64,000 bases of DNA from a virus (IMGVR_UViG_3300027708_000013), one strand, 5' to 3'; counted from the first letter of the stretch, positions 5,243 to 13,784 are shown. Program-made: numbers and translations. Notes: generated by a model not told the origin, from the letters alone.

Positions 5243-7252
5243 TTACTTGCTGGTGGCACGGTAGGTGCCTGACCAGTCTTTAGGCACACCTTCTGCCAAT
5301 CTCAAGCTCATGCTTTTGTAGTACTCAGTTAACTCTGGCGATTGATTCGTACAATACTCTACCATTTGTAGTGCCTTCTTCCAGTTGCCAGCATAGTAGT
5401 GTCTTAAAAACTCTTGATGACCCAATTTAGTTTCAGCCAGTGTATAAATTTTTACACCTTGAGTTTTACCTTTTACAGCAATACAATCTAGTTCGGCTAC
5501 GGGATATGTATCTTTTACCAATTCCGCAGTGCGTTGACCAAGTACAATTTTGACACCGTACGGCTTGCTTTGTCCTTCCAGTCTACTCGCCAAATTGACG
5601 CCATCGCCCAAGCAAGTATAGTCAAAGCGTTGATCAGATCCCATGTTACCCACCACAACACTTGCACTGTTGATGCCAAGCCCCATGCCAAAAGCCGGCA
5701 CACCTTCTGCTGTAATTTCTCTATTAAATTCATCCAAACTCTCCATCATTTCCAACGCTGTGCGTACTGCGTCTACCGCATGTTGTGGGTTATCTAACGG
5801 TGCGTTCCAAAATGCCATCTGTGCATCACCAATGTATTTGTCCAGTGTGCCTTTGTTCTCAAGTATACGTTTGGTCATTGCTGTCATGTAACGATTCATG
5901 ATCTTTGTAAGACCCTGTACATCTGCTCCGTAATGTTCACTAATGGTGGTGAATCCACGCACATCGGTAAACATGATGGACAGTTCACGTTCCTCACCAC
6001 CCAAGGTCAACAGTTCTGGTTGACGCTGTAACTGTGCCACTAGGTCCGGACTTAGATAAGTTCCAAACTGCCGTTTAATCTGTTGTTTTTGTAGGAACTC
6101 GCTTACAAATTTAACACCATAGGCATGAAGCATAACCAGTACAAGGCCAGCGACCAAACCAGTAACATCAATAAGCCAATGGTACTGCGAGTAAGCCAAC
6201 TGGCTAGCAAAAACAACCCCCACAACAACCCCCACACTAGATATGATTCCCACATACATCCACCTCGTTAAAAATAGTAGTACTACTGCCAACACAGCCA
6301 ATCCCGCAAGTTCTGCACCATCTGCCCAAGCGGGTCTTTGTATATTTACACCACGAGCCACAGTTGCTATTACTGCAGCCTGTACGTCTTGTGGCCACAC
6401 AGCACCCACAGCAGTGGGCACTGGATTTGCTATGCCCGCGGCCGTAACCCCCACTATCACTATAGAATTATCGAACGTGTTGGGCAAATCTGTCATACTG
6501 ACCGCACGACTGCGTTGACTCCAGTCAATCCAAATTCTTCCTGACCTGTCAGTGTCAAGTATGCCTATACCACCGGGTCCACGCATCTTTTCAATACCCA
6601 ACTCACTCATTTTGATTTGAAAGTTAGTGTTGCCCTCTGCTGTCATCAGTGTGGCTAAACTGGCAGATGGATACAAGTTGCCATCAATTGCTACTACCAA
6701 GGGCATGCGACGAACAACACCATCAATTTCTGGCAGTGTGTTAACTATGCCCGAGCTTGCCGCAGCAAACTCTAAAGCAGGAATGTTTGCTATCATGCCG
6801 GGATAAGTGACTATGAGTTCGCCGTGATTGCTTCCAATAACGCTGGAGCCGGGTGGGCGTGGTGTGTTTTTATTTTGACCTGCAGGAATGTTGCTGAGTA
6901 CTACCGGATACTTCTTCAATACTTGAATCAGTGCGGCATCACCACCGGATCTATCCCGTTCACTCATTACAATGTTAAACACCACTAAGCCGGCACCTCT
7001 TTTGTAAAGGTCTCGGATCAAGTCAGCATACACACGCCGATCAAAAGGATACTGCCCATGCTGTGCTAGTGCGGCTTCGTCTATATTAATTGTGTAAATG
7101 TTGTTTAGTGTGGGTGCTTTGGCAGTGATTACAGTGTCAAAATATCTTAGTCTTACACTTTCAACAAATGTAGGATCTGCAATTCTAACGGCCAACACTA
7201 GTGCCAGTGTAAGCAAGGCTGTCCAAGGTGAGGTTAATATTTTTTTCATCAT
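5243..7252 (-). CDS. CHASE2-domain class III adenylate cyclase (membrane sensor)
   Basis: N-terminal TM, CHASE2 motifs (IDEAAL...YPFDRR, DGVVRRMPL), three TMs, then FTDVRGFT, DKYIGDA, RFDYT, GDGVNLASRLEG, VKGK. Confidence 0.93.
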   Translation of the reverse strand: MMKKILTSPWTALLTLALVLAVRIADPTFVESVRLRYFDTVITAKAPTLNNIYTINIDEAALAQHGQYPFDRRVYADLIRDLYKRGAGLVVFNIVMSERDRSGGDAALIQVLKKYPVVLSNIPAGQNKNTPRPPGSSVIGSNHGELIVTYPGMIANIPALEFAAASSGIVNTLPEIDGVVRRMPLVVAIDGNLYPSASLATLMTAEGNTNFQIKMSELGIEKMRGPGGIGILDTDRSGRIWIDWSQRSRAVSMTDLPNTFDNSIVIVGVTAAGIANPVPTAVGAVWPQDVQAAVIATVARGVNIQRPAWADGAELAGLAVLAVVLLFLTRWMYVGIISSVGVVVGVVFASQLAYSQYHWLIDVTGLVAGLVLVMLHAYGVKFVSEFLQKQQIKRQFGTYLSPDLVAQLQRQPELLTLGGEERELSIMFTDVRGFTTISEHYGADVQGLTKIMNRYMTAMTKRILENKGTLDKYIGDAQMAFWNAPLDNPQHAVDAVRTALEMMESLDEFNREITAEGVPAFGMGLGINSASVVVGNMGSDQRFDYTCLGDGVNLASRLEGQSKPYGVKIVLGQRTAELVKDTYPVAELDCIAVKGKTQGVKIYTLAETKLGHQEFLRHYYAGNWKKALQMVEYCTNQSPELTEYYKSMSLRLAEGVPKDWSGTYRATSK

Positions 7253-8133
7253 TGTATTTTAAACTTTACGTATTCTGTAATTAAATCAGCCACATCTACA
7301 CCACAATAGGTTTCAAATCCCAAAAATCCTGGATTACTGTTGGCCTCGCATACTCTAAAACCTCTGGTGTCGAACAGGAGGTCTATGCCGGCTATGTCCA
7401 AGTTCAGTGCCTTGGCAGTTTCTCTGGCTAAAAAATCTATTTCTTCTGTAACTTCAAAGTTTGAACCAGTGCCACCATTGGTGATGTTGGCACGAAAATC
7501 GCCTTCGGGTGCTGTGCGTTTCATTGCACCTATTACTTTGCCACCTATCACCAGCACACGTAGATCTTCGCCCACACGTTCACCGAGATATTCTTGTACT
7601 ATCAATGTTTTTTTATTGCCTAGATTTTTAATAAACTCCATGAGCTTTTTAAAATCTCTACTGCGTTCGCAGAGATAAACCCCTTCGCCGTACGATCCTG
7701 TAACAACCTTGACCACACAGGGAAATCCTATGTTTTCTTTAACCAAAGTCTCGTCTATGGGGAAACGCACCATCATGGTGTTGGGAATGGGTATACCGTG
7801 GCGGCTTAGAATCTGGCTGGTACGCAGTTTGTCTTTTACAGTTTCTATAGCAGTGGCGCCATTTACACAGGGTACACCGGCTTGTTCAAAATGACGCACC
7901 ACAGCCAACTGAAATGGTAGTATGCCGGCGCCCAATCGTACTAGGACTAGTTTGGGCATTTCAATGGTTTCACCTCGCAGTTTGATGCCTTGACGTATGT
8001 TACGATCCACAATGATGTCAAAATCATCAGGGTGTGCCATCACAGCATCAATGTTCTTTTTAGCAAAACTCTCCATTAATCGCTCGCACTCGTATTCGTT
8101 GCGATCTAATTTAGTTAATATCAACACTGTCAT
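7249..8133 (-). CDS. rimK: RimK-family ATP-grasp alpha-L-glutamate ligase
   Basis: DKLRTSQIL, PCVVKVVTGSYGEGV, VQEYL, DLRVLVIG, FRANITNGG, GIDLL, EANSNPG. Confidence 0.85.
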   Translation of the reverse strand: MTVLILTKLDRNEYECERLMESFAKKNIDAVMAHPDDFDIIVDRNIRQGIKLRGETIEMPKLVLVRLGAGILPFQLAVVRHFEQAGVPCVNGATAIETVKDKLRTSQILSRHGIPIPNTMMVRFPIDETLVKENIGFPCVVKVVTGSYGEGVYLCERSRDFKKLMEFIKNLGNKKTLIVQEYLGERVGEDLRVLVIGGKVIGAMKRTAPEGDFRANITNGGTGSNFEVTEEIDFLARETAKALNLDIAGIDLLFDTRGFRVCEANSNPGFLGFETYCGVDVADLITEYVKFKIQ

Positions 8134-8885
8134 TGAATTTCATTCCAAGTTACTATTTCCCAACTGCCGTCCCAATTTTCCACAAGAGCCGAGCAACTTT
8201 CTACCCAGTCCCCATCGTTCATGTACACAATGCCTTCTATGTCACGTATTTCTGCTGTGTGTATGTGTCCACATATTATACCATCGTAACCCTTGCTTCT
8301 ACAATAGTTGGCCAATAATCGTTCAAAATTTAATATATACGCCACTGCCTGTTTGGTATTGTGTTTGATCCATTTGCTCATGCTCCAGTAGGGCAAGCCT
8401 AACCAACTGCGAACCACAGCATGATAATCATTGAGTTTGATAATAATGTCGTATAACTTGTCACCAATGTGCATGAGCCAACGTCCCGAACTGGCATGCA
8501 TCAAACTGTCAAACATGTCTCCGTGTACTATTAGATATCTATTGCCATCTAATCCTACATGTTCATAGCGATTCACCACAGTTAAATTGCCCAGTACCGG
8601 AATAAAATGCAACCATTTTCTTAAAACTTCGTCATGGTTGCCTACGACATAAACAACCTGTGTGCCTTTTTTAGCAATTTTTAATATTTTACGTATGATG
8701 TCGGAATGACTTTCGGGCCAATACCACGATTGACTCAATCGCCAACCATCAACAATGTCGCCTACCAAGTAAAGATGGTCTGCTGTGTTGTGTTTGAGAA
8801 AATTCTTTAACAGCTCGGCCTTGCAACCTCTACTGCCTAAATGTACATCGCTGATTGATATGGTTCTATACTTGTTTTTTGACAT
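8130..8885 (-). CDS. calcineurin-like metallophosphoesterase (UDP-2,3-diacylglucosamine hydrolase-like)
   Basis: SDVHLG, VGDIVDGW, GNHD, HGD, GHIH and NDGDWVESCSAL motifs. Confidence 0.85.
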   Translation of the reverse strand: MSKNKYRTISISDVHLGSRGCKAELLKNFLKHNTADHLYLVGDIVDGWRLSQSWYWPESHSDIIRKILKIAKKGTQVVYVVGNHDEVLRKWLHFIPVLGNLTVVNRYEHVGLDGNRYLIVHGDMFDSLMHASSGRWLMHIGDKLYDIIIKLNDYHAVVRSWLGLPYWSMSKWIKHNTKQAVAYILNFERLLANYCRSKGYDGIICGHIHTAEIRDIEGIVYMNDGDWVESCSALVENWDGSWEIVTWNEIQ

Positions 8886-8903
8886 GATGTTTGATAAAAA
8901 CAG

Positions 8904-9188
8904 TTACAGAGATTTGCCGAGTTTTTTTACACCAAAAGCCAACCCACAAGCATATTCTCCTTGCAATTCTACCAAGGTCCAAGTGCCAGTAGTTTCATTA
9001 CGAAACATTACAACCATACTTTTTTTATCGTTCTGCAGATTATAGTCCGTAAATGTCGGAACTTCTCCGTATCGTTTCAGCTCCTTAATAGCCAGTTCAA
9101 CTGGCGCACAAGTAACAGGTTTAAATGTTTCAATGTTTTGTGCCGATACAACAACAGGGAACATAAGTGCGAGCAAGAGTTTTTGCAT
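8904..9188 (-). CDS. small secreted protein
   Basis: Signal-peptide-like MQKLLLALMFPVVVSA from ATG 9188, just downstream of the ATAAATA box. Confidence 0.6.
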   Translation of the reverse strand: MQKLLLALMFPVVVSAQNIETFKPVTCAPVELAIKELKRYGEVPTFTDYNLQNDKKSMVVMFRNETTGTWTLVELQGEYACGLAFGVKKLGKSL

Positions 9189-9210
9189 AGTGGATCCAAT
9201 CAATTTACAG

Positions 9211-9217
9211 TATTTAT
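9211..9217 (-). promoter_or_regulatory. late-type promoter ATAAATA
   Basis: TAAATA core upstream of the run 9188 to metallophosphoesterase to rimK to cyclase. Confidence 0.45.
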
Positions 9218-9251
9218 TGAGCGTTAACACCCTGTTGTAAAAACGTATGGT

Positions 9252-9821
9252 TTAATTGCGTATATAACTATAATTGCCGCAACCGGAACTGCATTGTATC
9301 GACATACTGCCTTGATTGGCCTGTGTGGGACTAGTCTGTTGTACAGTGACCGTGGCACCCAAGGCACCATTTAAGTTTAAATCAAACGTTTTATTAGCAC
9401 CTACACCACCGCTTTGTGTAACATCTACTGTGTTGTTGTTGTTTGTTGTTCCGGTTGCATTGGTTATAGTTAAATTATGTGCACCGGCACCGGTTTGACT
9501 GATATTGAAGTTGTTAGCAGATCCTGAGAGATTTTGTATAGCGGCTGTGTGATTACCACTGCCATCTTGAAATAGTACAACTCCATTGTTAATGCCCGAA
9601 ACAATTTCAACGCCGACTGTTTTGGCGCCTGTGCCCTGTTGCGTGATTGAAATATTGGTATAGTCCACTGATGAAGTGTTGCCTAGATTAACTGTGGTAC
9701 TGTGGTTGTTGCCATCTTGAATTATTGTGGTAGTGTTATTATTACCAATTTGATCAATGTTGATAGTGTTGTCTGCGGCCCAGGCAACATTAAGCATCAA
9801 TAATAATAATAATTTTTTCAT
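9252..9821 (-). CDS. curlin-repeat protein (CsgA/CsgB-like), short
   Basis: Signal peptide MKKLLLLLMLNVAWA; repeated N-x-h-x-I-x-Q-x-G-x-x-N units (NTINIDQIGNNN, NISITQQGTG, NNFNISQTGAG, NTVDVTQSGG); N/Q/G/T/S-rich. Confidence 0.8.
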   Translation of the reverse strand: MKKLLLLLMLNVAWAADNTINIDQIGNNNTTTIIQDGNNHSTTVNLGNTSSVDYTNISITQQGTGAKTVGVEIVSGINNGVVLFQDGSGNHTAAIQNLSGSANNFNISQTGAGAHNLTITNATGTTNNNNTVDVTQSGGVGANKTFDLNLNGALGATVTVQQTSPTQANQGSMSIQCSSGCGNYSYIRN

Positions 9822-10942
9822 TTTTGTATCACTGTAATCACAGTACTGTTGCCTGAATTCACACGATTTTTAAAATCCAATACACCTTGTGTCATGTAGA
9901 TAGTAGTGTTTTGTGTAGCAGGTACAGTTACACTCATTACATTGCTACCATCGTCACGTGCTAAAGTTATCTTGGGCTCTTGTATATCAACAGTAATGCC
10001 ACTGATAGCATTGTAGTCGGGCAATAATTTATTACTAGTTGTGTTTAATAAATTTAATTGTGCTTTCATTTGAGCATCCACAATGTCAAGAATATTAGCA
10101 AGGAAATTTTGATCAAGAAAGTTACGGGCAAGTTTGTCCTGGAATACTTCTCGAGCCTGTGCGTCTAAAGCATTGGCTAGTCCTTGCTCTTTGAGAAAAT
10201 CCATATCCAATGCAGATTTCATTTCCATTCGAGTAGTAGTTCGATCTTCTTTATTAAGTTCCTTGGGAGGTGATACAATTAACATATTATTAATGGCATC
10301 TTCACTAAGTCGAAGGATAACTGGTTTTGGCGGAGGATTATTACGTGACTCTACCTTGATTGCTTGAAATGCTATATTAAGTGTAACAATGCCGGCATCA
10401 GTAGTAACATCGATGGCACCTGTTACACATTCGTCTATACTTTGATATCCAAGACGACAGCTGGGCAATAAAATAATTGTACTGGTCCCTAACTCGTCAA
10501 CTGTGGCAGTAAAATCAGTTCCGCGAACAGCAATGGTTGCTGTGGGCGTGTTAATAGATACTTTATTAGCCGGATTATGTGCTATAACGCCTGAAGCATA
10601 TCTCACTGTGCCTGCGGCCATGTTGAGTGCTAATTTTCCAGCACTGGGTTTTTTAGGATCGTAAACAAAATCATCAATGATCAAACGACTATTTTCATTT
10701 ACTTGTACTCGAGTGTCATCTGCAAATGTAATGCCAACTTTACCCTGGGCTGTCCGTACGGTGTCGTTCATCTCCATCCCAGTGCCCTTGTTCGCTGTCA
10801 GTGTCGTTGTTGAGCGTTGTATTGAACCCGGACTGTTTATTTGTTCTGTCACTGTTCCTATTGCCGCTATGCAATTCAGTGATGTACTCATCAAGAGTAC
10901 GCATAATACGTCCGTCCATATTAGTCTCCTGGTCTGAATCAT
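9818..10942 (-). CDS. FecR-domain secreted/periplasmic protein with curlin-like C-terminus
   Basis: Signal peptide; FecR pattern MNDTVRTAQGKVGITFADDTRVQVNENSRL...TPTATIAVRGTDF; ends NTTIYMTQG...NSTVITVIQK. Confidence 0.85.
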   Translation of the reverse strand: MIQTRRLIWTDVLCVLLMSTSLNCIAAIGTVTEQINSPGSIQRSTTTLTANKGTGMEMNDTVRTAQGKVGITFADDTRVQVNENSRLIIDDFVYDPKKPSAGKLALNMAAGTVRYASGVIAHNPANKVSINTPTATIAVRGTDFTATVDELGTSTIILLPSCRLGYQSIDECVTGAIDVTTDAGIVTLNIAFQAIKVESRNNPPPKPVILRLSEDAINNMLIVSPPKELNKEDRTTTRMEMKSALDMDFLKEQGLANALDAQAREVFQDKLARNFLDQNFLANILDIVDAQMKAQLNLLNTTSNKLLPDYNAISGITVDIQEPKITLARDDGSNVMSVTVPATQNTTIYMTQGVLDFKNRVNSGNSTVITVIQK

Positions 10943-10943
10943 G

Positions 10944-11858
10944 TTATCTAATAGCTGGCAATGTAACCGGTGCTGTTAATAAGGGCACACCAGAACCTTG
11001 ACTGATATTAACTGTGTTGCTGTTACCGCTAATTTTTACGTTGGCATCATTGGTGGAGCCACCGCCAGCACCTTGATTAATACCAACCCAGTTACTACTA
11101 CCAGTTAAGCCAATGTTGGCCGAGTTGTTGCTACCGTTTTGTACTACAGTAACAGCATTGTCGTTACCAACCAAGGCATCACCACTGGCATAACCTGCTA
11201 TAGATGTGGTATTACCGGCGCCGTTTTGTTTAATGTCAAACGAGTTAGCAATCCCATCAGCGTTGATACCAATTGTGTTGGTGCCGCCGGCTTGATCAGT
11301 GACAACTGTATTTTGTCCGCCAGTTGATAATGATACATTAACGGAGGTAGAGTTATCTCTGATCTTGGTTTGTACATTATCGCCTTGGCCCTCTGTAGTT
11401 ACACTAACAGTATTACCTGAACCTTGTACATCAGCTTTAAAGTTTGCACCGCCTCCGGTTTGAGTGACATCAATTTGAATATTAGATGCTGTGCCTTGAC
11501 CACTGGCATTGACGTCAATTAATGCTGTGTTGTTATTGCCGCCTGACACACTGTAGTTAATGTTGGCCGATACACCGTTAGTAGTTGTTGCAGTAACCCC
11601 AAGTGATAATGTGTTGCCTGCTCCGACTTGGTTTACATTAATTTGTGAATTACTTCCGTTGAGAGTTGCGGCATCTTGCCCTTTGACCCCTGGTGCTCCA
11701 TTGACAATACCTTTGACAGTGTTGCCTGTTCCATCTTGTGTTATATTGATTACGGCATTGTCGCCTGCTTGATCAATATAGATGCTGTTGTCCACAGCAA
11801 TCACATGTGCCGATATCATCATGGCCATTATTGTTGTTATTATTCTAGCTTTTTTCAT
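10944..11858 (-). CDS. curlin-repeat protein (CsgA-like), long, 304 aa
   Basis: SD AAGGAG before MKKARII signal peptide; at least 8 curlin-type units (NSIYIDQAGDN, VINITQDGTGN, QINVNQVGAGN, NSFDIKQNGAGN, NAVTVVQNGSNN). Confidence 0.8.
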   Translation of the reverse strand: MKKARIITTIMAMMISAHVIAVDNSIYIDQAGDNAVINITQDGTGNTVKGIVNGAPGVKGQDAATLNGSNSQINVNQVGAGNTLSLGVTATTTNGVSANINYSVSGGNNNTALIDVNASGQGTASNIQIDVTQTGGGANFKADVQGSGNTVSVTTEGQGDNVQTKIRDNSTSVNVSLSTGGQNTVVTDQAGGTNTIGINADGIANSFDIKQNGAGNTTSIAGYASGDALVGNDNAVTVVQNGSNNSANIGLTGSSNWVGINQGAGGGSTNDANVKISGNSNTVNISQGSGVPLLTAPVTLPAIR

Positions 11859-11887
11859 TTTTAATTCTCCTTGGCTCTTATTGGCCA

Positions 11888-12688
11888 TTATTCTGAACCC
11901 TTGGGTTCTTGAAAATCCCACACCGCCTTTCGTTGACCTTCTTTAATTAATTCCACCACGGCCGCTTCAATTGTTGCTTTGACGGCCAACGTACCGGGTT
12001 CATTGATTGTTAGTCCGGTTTCAAATTCAAATGCCTGTGTACCATTATCTAAAAATTTCAGCACTGCTACACTGTCGGCAGTGCTGTACACTAATTTTGT
12101 CACAGTGACTGCTGCCAATATCTTGCCGGTGTTGACTGATACAGCACGTAGGCTCACTGTGACAATATCTTTACTGTACTGGGTTTGTGTACCAATACCT
12201 AAAAATCTATGTGCCGCTCCTCCAGATTCCATGCCGGTGTCGTAACCAATGATACCACCTTCCATGATGATGCCGGCAAACTGCAAGGGCATGAGTGGTT
12301 TGGCATCTTTGCCTTCGTAGGCTTCACGCATTTGTTTCACTATCATGCGTTCTTTGGTAAGTGCGTCAATGTTTACTCGTTCCACTACTTCAAACCAAGC
12401 ACCATGTCCTACATCTTGTAGTGCTTTGATTAAGAATACTTCACCGCCCTGTGTCACCGCTGTTGACAAACTGGCAATGCCGGGAGTGGGTCTACGTTGA
12501 CCTGTTTTGTCGGCAAACTGATACACAGCCACACTTAATCGTTTACCACCACTTGGAGGAGGTACTGCGTCAAATTCTTTTTGCATGACATTGGCAGCTA
12601 CTCGAGGCTCAAATCGAAATCCTGCCTTTTGAGTCACAGCACATCCACTGAGCAAAGCCACTATTAATAAAGATAAGATCAGTTTCAT
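11888..12688 (-). CDS. csgG: curli secretion channel CsgG (outer-membrane lipoprotein)
   Basis: Lipobox LLSGC; VAVYQFADKTGQRRP, STAVTQG, WFEVVER..L..L..ER.I, GGIIGYD, QYSKD.VTVSLRAVSV.TG.IL, NEPG. Confidence 0.92.
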   Translation of the reverse strand: MKLILSLLIVALLSGCAVTQKAGFRFEPRVAANVMQKEFDAVPPPSGGKRLSVAVYQFADKTGQRRPTPGIASLSTAVTQGGEVFLIKALQDVGHGAWFEVVERVNIDALTKERMIVKQMREAYEGKDAKPLMPLQFAGIIMEGGIIGYDTGMESGGAAHRFLGIGTQTQYSKDIVTVSLRAVSVNTGKILAAVTVTKLVYSTADSVAVLKFLDNGTQAFEFETGLTINEPGTLAVKATIEAAVVELIKEGQRKAVWDFQEPKGSE

Positions 12689-12689
12689 A

Positions 12690-13154
12690 TCAATTTCCAA
12701 ATTGGAACGAACCCAAGGGTACAGTTACCTGTGTTTGATTGCCCACGGAGTCTGTCACAGTCATGTAAATATTACCACTGTCCCGACTCCAAAATATAGT
12801 ATTACCTTCAAAATTCATTGTGCCCGACGTACTACCACCTGACGCAAACATGGCAGTGGCTAAATTTTGACTGATCTGTGCATAGATACGACTTTCCAAG
12901 TTGTTCATAAACTTGCTGATATTGGTATTGGCTGCTTCTGCTCGGGCTTTATCCAATGCGGACTGTATGTCTTTGGCCACTTGCTGTCTACGAGTGTATT
13001 CTTGATTTTCAATCGTGAGAATATGACTGCTATAGCCGGACCCGTTAAAACTGGGACTTTTAAATGAATAGTCTGCTATAGGAGTGGCAAAGGCAAAAGG
13101 TGCCCATACTATGGCACCAAATGCTAGATAAAACTTATTATAATTTTTATACAT
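12690..13154 (-). CDS. csgF: curli assembly protein CsgF
   Basis: Signal peptide then YSFKSPSFNGSGY (CsgF pattern Y.F.NPSFGG), FMNNLESRIYAQIS, GTMNFEG, TQVTVP; directly upstream of csgG. Confidence 0.85.
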   Translation of the reverse strand: MYKNYNKFYLAFGAIVWAPFAFATPIADYSFKSPSFNGSGYSSHILTIENQEYTRRQQVAKDIQSALDKARAEAANTNISKFMNNLESRIYAQISQNLATAMFASGGSTSGTMNFEGNTIFWSRDSGNIYMTVTDSVGNQTQVTVPLGSFQFGN

Positions 13155-13170: not shown

Positions 13171-13177
13171 TATTTAC
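13171..13177 (-). promoter_or_regulatory. late-type promoter GTAAATA heading the curli module
   Basis: TAAATA core followed by SD TAGGAG and the csgF ATG. Confidence 0.55.
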
Positions 13178-13212: not shown

Positions 13213-13749
13213 TTAAGTACGTTTAATGCCTAGTTGATGGTAGACATGTTGTACTGCCTGTGCTTGACTTATGCAATCTTCCAAGGCGTTGTGAAGTCCT
13301 GCTTTGTTCCGTTCACGTGGGTCACCGTGTACACCAAACAATGTTCTGCTGTCGCGAATCTGCCAATAGTTCCAAGGTATGGGGCAATCCATTTGACGAT
13401 AGAGGTTTTCCAAAATAGCAATGTCAAACACAGGACCTTGACACCAGATGTTGTCAACTCCCACCAGAAATCGGTTCAACTGTTGATACATTTCTCTCAA
13501 GGAAACTCTGTTGTGTTCGCCAAATGCTTCTTCGTATACATCTGCACTTTGCCTACTCCACCATTCCAGTGTGTCATCCTGTACTGTTCTGCCCAGGGCA
13601 GTTTGCTCATCCACATTGATTCTAAAGTAGAGACCGTTGTCACCACGGATAGTGTCACTGAATGGGTCAAACTTCACAGCACCAAGAGTCAATACCACAC
13701 AATCTGGACGTGTGCCTAGGGTTTCTAAATCAAGCATGCAAGCAGTCAT
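13213..13749 (-). CDS. DEDDh 3'-5' exoribonuclease (Rv2179c/RNase AS-like)
   Basis: MLDLETLG, QGPVFDIAIL, RDSRT, HNALEDC. Confidence 0.85.
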   Translation of the reverse strand: MTACMLDLETLGTRPDCVVLTLGAVKFDPFSDTIRGDNGLYFRINVDEQTALGRTVQDDTLEWWSRQSADVYEEAFGEHNRVSLREMYQQLNRFLVGVDNIWCQGPVFDIAILENLYRQMDCPIPWNYWQIRDSRTLFGVHGDPRERNKAGLHNALEDCISQAQAVQHVYHQLGIKRT

Positions 13750-13755
13750 AGTGTT

Positions 13756-13784
13756 ATTATACTGGGTTATTTGGCGGTTGTCAA
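13756..13784 (-). promoter_or_regulatory. sigma70-type promoter TTGACA-N17-TATAAT
   Basis: Perfect consensus read on the minus strand. Confidence 0.8.

Follow-up and report, generated by a model that had tools for sequence, protein, structure and literature searches.

The window analysed here is a 64,000-nucleotide stretch of viral DNA (IMGVR_UViG_3300027708_000013). Its minus strand carries, between positions 13154 and 5243, nine closely packed genes that represent the published type VIII secretion (T8SS, or curli) module of phages in a freshwater phage with a large genome. The first is csgF (12690-13154), encoding an outer-membrane accessory protein of the T8SS whose hydrophobic N terminus corresponds to a signal peptide (Pfam CsgF, 49.3 bits; phrog_35372, E value of 8.5e-63). 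It is followed by csgG (11888-12700), encoding the outer-membrane pore lipoprotein (Pfam CsgG, 154 bits; phrog_20175, E value of 4e-99); its true start is likely to be the ATG at 12688, from which translation gives MKLIL...LLSGC with a lipobox. Next comes the open reading frame (ORF) of curlin-repeat protein A (10944-11921; Pfam Curlin_rpt, 26.8 bits with a cut-off of 20.7), whose likely true start, the ATG at 11858, has AAGGAG 8 nucleotides upstream and yields a protein of 304 amino acids (10944-11858). The gene of a periplasmic FecR-domain protein of 374 amino acids (9818-10942; Pfam FecR, 44.4 bits; phrog_37870, E value of 2.8e-131) separates it from that of curlin-repeat protein B (9252-9821; 189 amino acids; Curlin_rpt, 34.6 bits with the same cut-off of 20.7). 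Both curlins have hydrophobic N-terminal segments corresponding to signal peptides. The last gene (5243-7252) encodes a class III adenylate cyclase with a CHASE2 domain (Pfam CHASE2, 137.6 bits; Guanylate_cyc, 73.4 bits; phrog_35576, E value of 2e-238). All these Pfam matches were above the gathering score, and the cyclase, FecR, CsgG and CsgF proteins each belong to a full-length PHROG family.

An earlier interpretation made from the DNA alone (the sequence-only reading) had placed the FecR gene between two curlin genes with 1-bp and overlapping junctions, and this is what the sequence contains: the TAA stop of curlin A is followed by 1 base and the ATG of FecR, while the FecR stop overlaps the start of curlin B (ATGA). 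Three genes that it had not mentioned, encoding a small secreted protein, a metallophosphoesterase and a RimK-family ligase, lie between curlin B and the cyclase; the RimK gene overlaps each of its neighbours by 4 bases. None of the nine proteins matched CsgE, CsgC or CsgD in Pfam or NCBIfam. The cassette resembles the enterobacterial curli loci (csgBAC-csgDEFG) in encoding CsgF, the lipoprotein CsgG and signal-peptide-bearing subunits with curlin repeats, but differs from them in the absence of CsgE, CsgC and CsgD, in its much longer and divergent curlins, in the FecR gene between the subunit genes, and in the receptor cyclase that ends the operon.

The arrangement had been thought to be undescribed in phages, which does not hold. 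The order CsgF-CsgG-CsgA/B-FecR-CsgA/B-adenylate cyclase was reported in pelagiphages by Wittmers et al. (2022; PMC9599517), who detected the module in pelagiphages of both the podo- and the myo- type, at each of the 65 GOV2 stations and also among metatranscriptomes, with FecR always after a curlin gene and the cyclase merely frequent. Earlier, csgF and csgG had been noted with unidentified partners in pelagimyophages, freshwater fonsimyophages being devoid of them (Zaragoza-Solas et al. 2020; PMC7029224). A nucleotide search of the phage collection gave no match to the window, and a protein search of it showed that the genes are arranged in the same way in two cultured phages, Melnitz (Methylophilales) and HTVC008M (Pelagibacter). 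The viral module (HTVC008M, Melnitz and HTVC023P-type podophages) has the same genes in the same order as the window and likewise lacks CsgE, CsgC and CsgD, and the FecR and cyclase proteins of the window are 37-45% and about 36% identical, respectively, to those of the cultured phages. The window differs from it in several respects: three further genes separate its curlin B from its cyclase, its CsgG is of the short type (270 amino acids), its cyclase has the canonical Asn/Asp set where Melnitz has a variant one, and it is part of a freshwater contig of about 341 kb, whereas the published marine phage genomes measure 140-147 kb. The gene cluster is therefore already published; what is new comprises the freshwater copy on a contig of about 341 kb and, as set out below, the pairing of FecR-domain genes with CHASE2 cyclases in sampled bacterial loci, the architecture of the FecR protein and the co-variation of its two domains with different partners. 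The cyclase sequence of the window is on record on a 340,958-bp contig, and the DNA of the window is almost completely present in two freshwater metagenome runs, which may be the source samples.

The module is abundant in viruses. A large collection of proteins contains more than 6,700 FecR homologs, of which hundreds are about 70% identical, and a profile scan of IMG/VR for the FecR protein confirmed at least 571 stretches (571 of the 600 examined). We surveyed 80 IMG/VR loci, of which 72 had enough flank to be tested upstream of FecR; the downstream count covers 52. CsgG and CsgF were encoded upstream of FecR in 72 of the 72 loci. Downstream, a CHASE2 cyclase was found on the same strand in 45 of 52 loci and on the opposite strand in 3 more. 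The commonest order was CsgF-CsgG-curlin-FecR-curlin-cyclase; 3 loci stop after the second curlin, and one encodes an autotransporter-type protein in the cyclase's place. The viral contigs that carry related cassettes measure 236-349 kb, and two are complete (337-338 kb) with terminal repeats; the neighboring genes include those for HSP70, HSP20, ClpS, haem oxygenase and ribosomal protein S21.

These counts bear on a possibility that the sequence-only reading had itself raised, namely that the cassette is a bacterial operon captured once and decaying, and on a further one, that a bacterial contig was mistaken for a phage. The family does occur in three metagenome-assembled genomes (MAGs) of the genome collection, but these are its sole cellular matches there and consist of short contigs (6.8-18.9 kb) with the whole cassette. 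When 400 further genomes were sampled from the class of the one MAG carrying the C-terminal domain of the FecR protein, none had this domain. In addition to the hundreds of viral contigs, among them the complete 337-338 kb genomes, the ratio of nonsynonymous to synonymous substitution rates (dN/dS) of FecR is 0.08 (window against the locus L006, its closest FecR relative), the catalytic residues of the cyclase are kept, and the window has phage replication genes and late-promoter motifs. A one-off bacterial capture or a misassigned contig is thus scarcely credible, and all the cassette genes are intact and under purifying selection.

The cyclase has every element of the layout of CHASE2 receptors (PF05226; a transmembrane [TM] helix, a periplasmic CHASE2 domain, three TM helices and a cytoplasmic output domain). 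TM1 is followed by the periplasmic CHASE2 domain (residues ~25-305), three TM helices (308-384) and the catalytic domain (~420-610); the Pfam CHASE2 match spans residues 15-325, and hydropathy places hydrophobic segments at residues 4-30 and 308-384. Its closest solved relative is CyaB of Pseudomonas aeruginosa (3R5G; E value of 1.4e-31). The description of the enzyme as motif-complete stands, as D430 (FTD), K472 and D476 (DKYIGD), D544 (FDYT), and N553 and R557 (VNLASR) all align with CyaB. They correspond to the two metal-binding aspartates (D430 and D476), the adenine-specifying pair (K472 and D544) and the transition-state pair (N553 and R557); T546 is also canonical. The resulting signature, DKDDTNR, satisfies the residue set of class III adenylate cyclases (PF00211), and the predicted catalytic site is a complete one of the ATP type. 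Among the 69 cassette cyclases compared, D430, K472, D476 and R557 are invariant (69/69), and 44, including that of the window, have the canonical set. A variant set was observed in 22 of the 69, where Asp544 is changed to Ser or Gly, an Asp is found two residues on, and Asn553 is changed to Ser, both metal-binding Asp, the Lys and the Arg being retained. Its carriers include Melnitz and the loci L001, L003 and L006, and this cyclase subtype could have an altered activity or nucleotide specificity.

The FecR protein consists of a signal peptide, a beta domain (residues 29-215), a linker (219-300) and a six-stranded C-terminal domain (316-373). It was modelled with AlphaFold2 using 32 diverse relatives, and the C-terminal domain was also folded alone. 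The predicted local distance difference test score was about 90 for the beta domain, below 50 for the linker, which is partly helical, and 92 for the C-terminal domain alone. The signal-peptide helix spans residues 2-23, the beta domain begins at residue 29, and there is no further membrane segment. Since the signal peptide is cleavable and no other membrane segment is present, the protein is predicted to be exported and soluble, and not an anti-sigma factor of the Escherichia coli type. The N-terminal domain resembles the C-terminal cell-surface signaling domain of PupR (6OVK; Z score of 15.2, root-mean-square deviation of 2.7 Å over 135 residues, the match covering residues 57-221) and the Bacteroidales anti-sigma factor BDI_1681 (4M0N; Z score of 13.9). 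Its first subdomain (residues 25-122) also resembles a protein described as a "cell surface anchoring domain" (5IX9; Z score of 9.4, root-mean-square deviation of 2.4 Å, 73 of 76 residues, 25% identity). Bacterial FecR relatives in the AlphaFold DB, of 207-1276 residues, have only the N-terminal domain in common with it. The C-terminal domain had no match among solved structures (best Z score of 3.5, Foldseek E value above 0.07), and in the AlphaFold DB it was found only in its own family and in one 677-residue FecR protein with the same ending.

The periplasmic fold is therefore common to the phage protein and to the FecR-PupR anti-sigma regulators of E. coli and Pseudomonas, and the Pfam family name, together with the discussion by Wittmers et al. 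(PMC9599517), would make of the protein an iron (ferric citrate) regulator of the module. That published work on the viral T8SS reads FecR in this way and does not mention CHASE2. Yet the signal peptide of the phage protein directly precedes the beta domain, so that both the cytoplasmic anti-sigma domain and the membrane anchor that these regulators have N-terminal of the FecR domain are absent. Moreover, no FecI-type sigma factor or TonB-dependent transducer is encoded among the cassette genes, and the bacterial counterparts adjoin CHASE2 sensors (see below), not fec genes. We consider a role in iron regulation very improbable.

The comparison with L006 gave an observation of its own. The FecR genes of the window (9818-10942) and of L006 (10001-11125) encode proteins that are 90% identical, with a proportion of synonymous differences (pS) of 0.49, while identities of only 54-73% were found for the flanking curlin B, CsgF, metallophosphoesterase and cyclase, whose synonymous sites are saturated. 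The explanation is either a recent exchange of the FecR gene between these two phages or an unusual constraint on it.

The C terminus of the FecR protein had been proposed to be curlin-like, on the basis of two strings said to have the spacing N-x-h-x-h-x-Q of curlin repeats. The strings themselves (NTTIYMTQG and NSTVITVIQK) are present at residues 345-353 and 365-374, but the spacing is not, as Q352 is preceded by the asparagine at a distance of 7 residues instead of 6. Both strings are strongly conserved, with no change at Q352, T370 or Q373 in relatives down to 38% identity, and form the last two strands of the compact six-stranded C-terminal domain in the AlphaFold2 model. The proposed homology failed in searches with hidden Markov models, shuffles, profiles and folds. 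Pfam Curlin_rpt (PF07012) did not match the tail at an E value of 10 or less, and 7 of 8 local alignments between the tail and the phage's own curlins were not above composition-preserving shuffles (z of 0.1-1.1). A profile-profile comparison of the tail with the curlin repeat (hhalign) gave a probability of 4.9%, and neither CsgA nor any other curlin structure was among the fold matches of the C-terminal domain. The one hint left is partial: a weight matrix built from the phage curlin strands scored 9-15 bits in the tails of about 8 of 32 family members (background maximum of 7.2) and only 1.9 bits in that of the window. The Pfam, shuffle, hhalign and fold searches rule out the tail as a curlin homolog, and we read the resemblance as beta-strand chemistry in common rather than as a curlin repeat.

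The association of FecR with CHASE2 is documented in bacteria. Clusters of a FecR-domain outer-membrane protein with a CHASE2 cyclase (PMC9239204) and operons of a LysM-FecR protein with a CHASE2 histidine kinase in Burkholderia and P. aeruginosa (PMC5192318) have been described, and in Sinorhizobium meliloti the outer-membrane protein NsrA is required for signaling by the CHASE2 cyclase CyaK (PMC7529298). To test this pairing, we identified CHASE2 in 89 of 201 genomes of one bacterial class and inspected 20 loci from 20 genomes. A FecR-domain ORF was found within 3 kb of the CHASE2 gene in 9 of the 20 loci, 6 of them within about 1 kb or overlapping, and 19 of the 20 had a cyclase output. The FecR-domain ORFs of this sample ranged from 163 to 2119 amino acids, measured from stop to stop. 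None of the 20 loci had csgG or csgF. Because FecR and CHASE2 are paired in bacteria without csgG or csgF, the phage module would join two bacterial modules, and its appearance is that of a curli export set fused to a FecR/CHASE2 sensor pair.

That the FecR protein and the cyclase are sensor partners, as had been suggested, is plausible in view of these 9 loci and of the published pairs (PMC9239204, PMC5192318, PMC7529298). The systems known from S. meliloti (NsrA with CyaK and CyaD1/D2), from Campylobacterota and from Burkholderia and P. aeruginosa have, as in the window, an exported FecR-fold protein (presumably so in the case of NsrA) encoded beside a CHASE2 sensor, and the paired bacterial cyclases have the same topology and catalytic type as that of the window. 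The Campylobacterota cluster comprises a CHASE2 cyclase, a phosphodiesterase, a FecR-domain protein of the outer membrane, and a TPR protein. NsrA has about 1200 amino acids. In contrast to the phage protein, the bacterial partners are anchored by an outer-membrane barrel, as in NsrA, or by LysM. The phage FecR protein has 374 amino acids and lacks a C-terminal outer-membrane beta-barrel, ending in the small, 60-residue orphan domain of six beta strands. A further difference is that curli genes are not linked to the bacterial pairs (0/20), while the phage pair lies inside a curli cassette.

We then compared the evolution of the FecR domains with that of their possible partners, using Spearman correlations (rho) between pairwise domain distances across 59 loci, with bootstrap and without correction for phylogeny, linkage or rate. 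The C-terminal domain correlated with CsgG (rho of 0.65) and CsgF (0.60) more strongly than did the N-terminal domain (0.55 and 0.47, respectively), and the bootstrap intervals of both differences exclude 0. The order was reversed for the periplasmic CHASE2 domain, which had a rho of 0.44 with the N-terminal domain and 0.35 with the C-terminal domain; its rho with its own catalytic domain was 0.21. This pattern runs counter to a simple linkage by gene distance and agrees with a tether attached to both membranes; for a docking of the C-terminal domain at CsgG/CsgF it is suggestive.

On these grounds, the module would consist of a curli export set joined to a FecR-domain/CHASE2-cyclase sensor pair, both of bacterial origin. 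CsgG and CsgF would form an outer-membrane channel in the infected cell and export the two curlin-repeat proteins. In the periplasm, the FecR protein would serve the cyclase as a co-sensor, with the FecR fold at its N terminus facing CHASE2 at the inner membrane, while the linker and the orphan C-terminal domain would reach CsgG/CsgF, in place of the outer-membrane barrel of NsrA-type partners. Changes in the pore, the fibre or the envelope could then set the synthesis of cyclic AMP (cAMP), which would have its targets among receptors of the host, for instance regulators of the CRP family. No gene with the cyclic nucleotide-binding domain PF00027, the one receptor type searched for, was found in five relatives (236-349 kb, 92-100% complete), so cAMP, if made, most likely acts on receptors of the host. 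We see about even chances that this explanation, a freshwater T8SS module with a FecR/cyclase co-sensor coupled to the pore, is right as a whole. Its most specific form is more tentative and, while possible, would not be our expectation: in it the FecR protein spans the periplasm as a tether, with its N-terminal fold on CHASE2 and its C-terminal domain on CsgG/CsgF or on nascent curlin, and cAMP conveys the condition of pore, fibre or envelope and resets host CRP-type regulation late in infection.

A complex prediction for CHASE2 (residues 24-310) and the FecR N-terminal domain (27-218) scored 0.00, which is evidence neither way. Several results weigh against this explanation. The link of FecR with the T8SS genes (72/72) is closer than that with the cyclase (45-48/52). 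Between the window and L006 the cyclases are 58% and the FecR proteins 90% identical, so one FecR protein can travel with very different CHASE2 domains, contrary to a tight and specific pairing. The N-terminal domain surpasses the C-terminal domain on CHASE2 by a marginal difference only (0 or less in 4% of bootstraps), and the co-variation is only suggestive, since phylogeny, linkage and rate differences are ignored in it. Finally, the contigs from RNA libraries described below may stem from DNA carry-over.

Some of the same observations would suit a FecR protein that is mainly a T8SS accessory (a periplasmic adaptor, cap, chaperone or fibre anchor) replacing CsgE/CsgC, with the cyclase as a separate auxiliary traveller. 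FecR accompanies CsgG, CsgF and a curlin in 72 of 72 loci while the cyclase is missing in 4-7 of 52, and in the published module FecR always follows a curlin gene and the cyclase is only frequent (PMC9599517). The cassette lacks csgE, csgC and csgD, FecR is translationally coupled to both curlins, and its C-terminal domain co-varies with CsgG and CsgF. However, bacterial FecR-domain genes pair with CHASE2 cyclases with no curli genes nearby (9/20), and, of the domains compared, the N-terminal one of FecR is that whose evolution correlates best with periplasmic CHASE2. Furthermore, we know of no other T8SS with a FecR-domain protein. An accessory role with an independent cyclase is a serious contender that we nevertheless hold to be rather unlikely.

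A T4-type late-promoter-like core, GTAAATA (13171-13177, minus strand), lies 22 nucleotides before the csgF ATG and is followed by TAGGAG. In the window, TAAATA on the coding strand is found 16 times at 8-70 nucleotides upstream of a gene start, where 3.0 would be expected (a five-fold enrichment), and TATAAATA occurs there 4 times against 0.5 expected, consistent with T4-type late transcription in this phage. No such core was found before any cassette gene other than csgF, which suggests a single late transcription unit, and the cassette is a probable late operon. Two lake-water metatranscriptome libraries, from two studies, contain short contigs that are 100% identical to the window. They cover the cyclase, RimK, the metallophosphoesterase, FecR, curlin A, CsgG and CsgF, and three of them span gene junctions, which fits transcription as one unit. 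We also observed a perfect sigma-70 consensus (TTGACA, 17 nucleotides, TATAAT; 13756-13784, minus strand) directly upstream of the gene of an Rv2179c-like exonuclease (13213-13749), one gene before csgF. There is no convincing terminator between the exonuclease gene and csgF, so early read-through into the cassette is possible.

The late-promoter-like signal at the head of the cassette would also suit a CsgG/CsgF pore repurposed for the timing of lysis or for permeability, an idea put forward for Melnitz by Buchholz et al. (2022; PMC9004378). The FecR-cyclase pair would then tune pore opening or lysis, and fibres would be secondary or absent. But the window has two intact curlin genes with signal peptides, above the Pfam threshold, and curlin genes are kept with the pore in nearly all loci; this conservation points to a genuine cargo. 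Adjoining the cassette in the window, no gene for a holin, endolysin or spanin was identified; the neighbors are the exonuclease and metabolic genes. We regard the lysis-pore role as unlikely.

Few auxiliary gene sets of aquatic phages are as widespread as this module (65 ocean stations, PMC9599517; at least 571 IMG/VR stretches), and its range is widened here to freshwater phages with genomes of about 340 kb. The advance is incremental, because the gene cluster was already published. The signaling hypothesis becomes more concrete: a bacterial sensor pair would be grafted on a curli export set, its FecR protein would have exchanged the membrane anchor for the small domain found to co-vary with CsgG and CsgF, and none of the five relatives searched for PF00027 revealed a cAMP receptor of its own. 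If the tether is real, the cAMP level of the infected cell would report on its pore, fibres or envelope and would reset CRP-type regulation of the host late in infection.

The three genes inserted between curlin B and the cyclase have different histories. The small secreted protein (8904-9188, minus strand; 94 amino acids from the ATG at 9188) has no Pfam, PHROG or NCBIfam match. It falls in viral-only atlas clusters, and its relatives are located elsewhere in other phages, e.g., 5 kb upstream in Melnitz; it is an insert and not a conserved member of the module. The protein, given at 108 amino acids in this comparison, was ruled out as a substitute for CsgC or CsgE, being viral only, without a family and not linked to the cassette elsewhere. 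The second gene (8130-8885, minus strand) encodes a cytoplasmic, LpxH-like metallophosphoesterase of the calcineurin type (Pfam Metallophos, 56 bits). Its best NCBIfam match is LpxH, at 45.9 bits with a cut-off of 134, and its matches in the Protein Data Bank are LpxH (E value of about 1e-3) and, weakly and partially, Lmo2642. Since its nearest relative is LpxH and NCBIfam gave no match to CpdA, a function as cAMP phosphodiesterase, by analogy with the Campylobacterota cluster, is without sequence support. The gene was found in 12 of the 52 viral loci, at variable positions, and in relatives it is often beside a GT4 glycosyltransferase; it is a recurrent rider of the cassette in the lineage of this phage. 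The third gene (7249-8133, minus strand) encodes an alpha-L-glutamate ligase of the RimK family (TIGR00768, 229.9 bits with a cut-off of 143). RimK is near the cassette in only 2 of the 52 loci, which rules it out as a part of the module.

Other cassettes differ in their cargo. In L003 (12609-15425) and L015 (8057-10093), a large protein with an autotransporter beta-domain, a second outer-membrane element, is encoded between the second curlin and the cyclase. The CsgG proteins of L003 (7730-8902) and L006 (7439-8668) have 390-409 amino acids, with a weak SH3_4-type C-terminal extension, while that of the window is short (270 amino acids). In L030 (12821-17615), which has no cyclase, the cassette is followed by the genes of a beta-propeller dehydrogenase of the pyrroloquinoline quinone (PQQ) type and a molybdopterin oxidoreductase, an unusual cargo for a phage contig.

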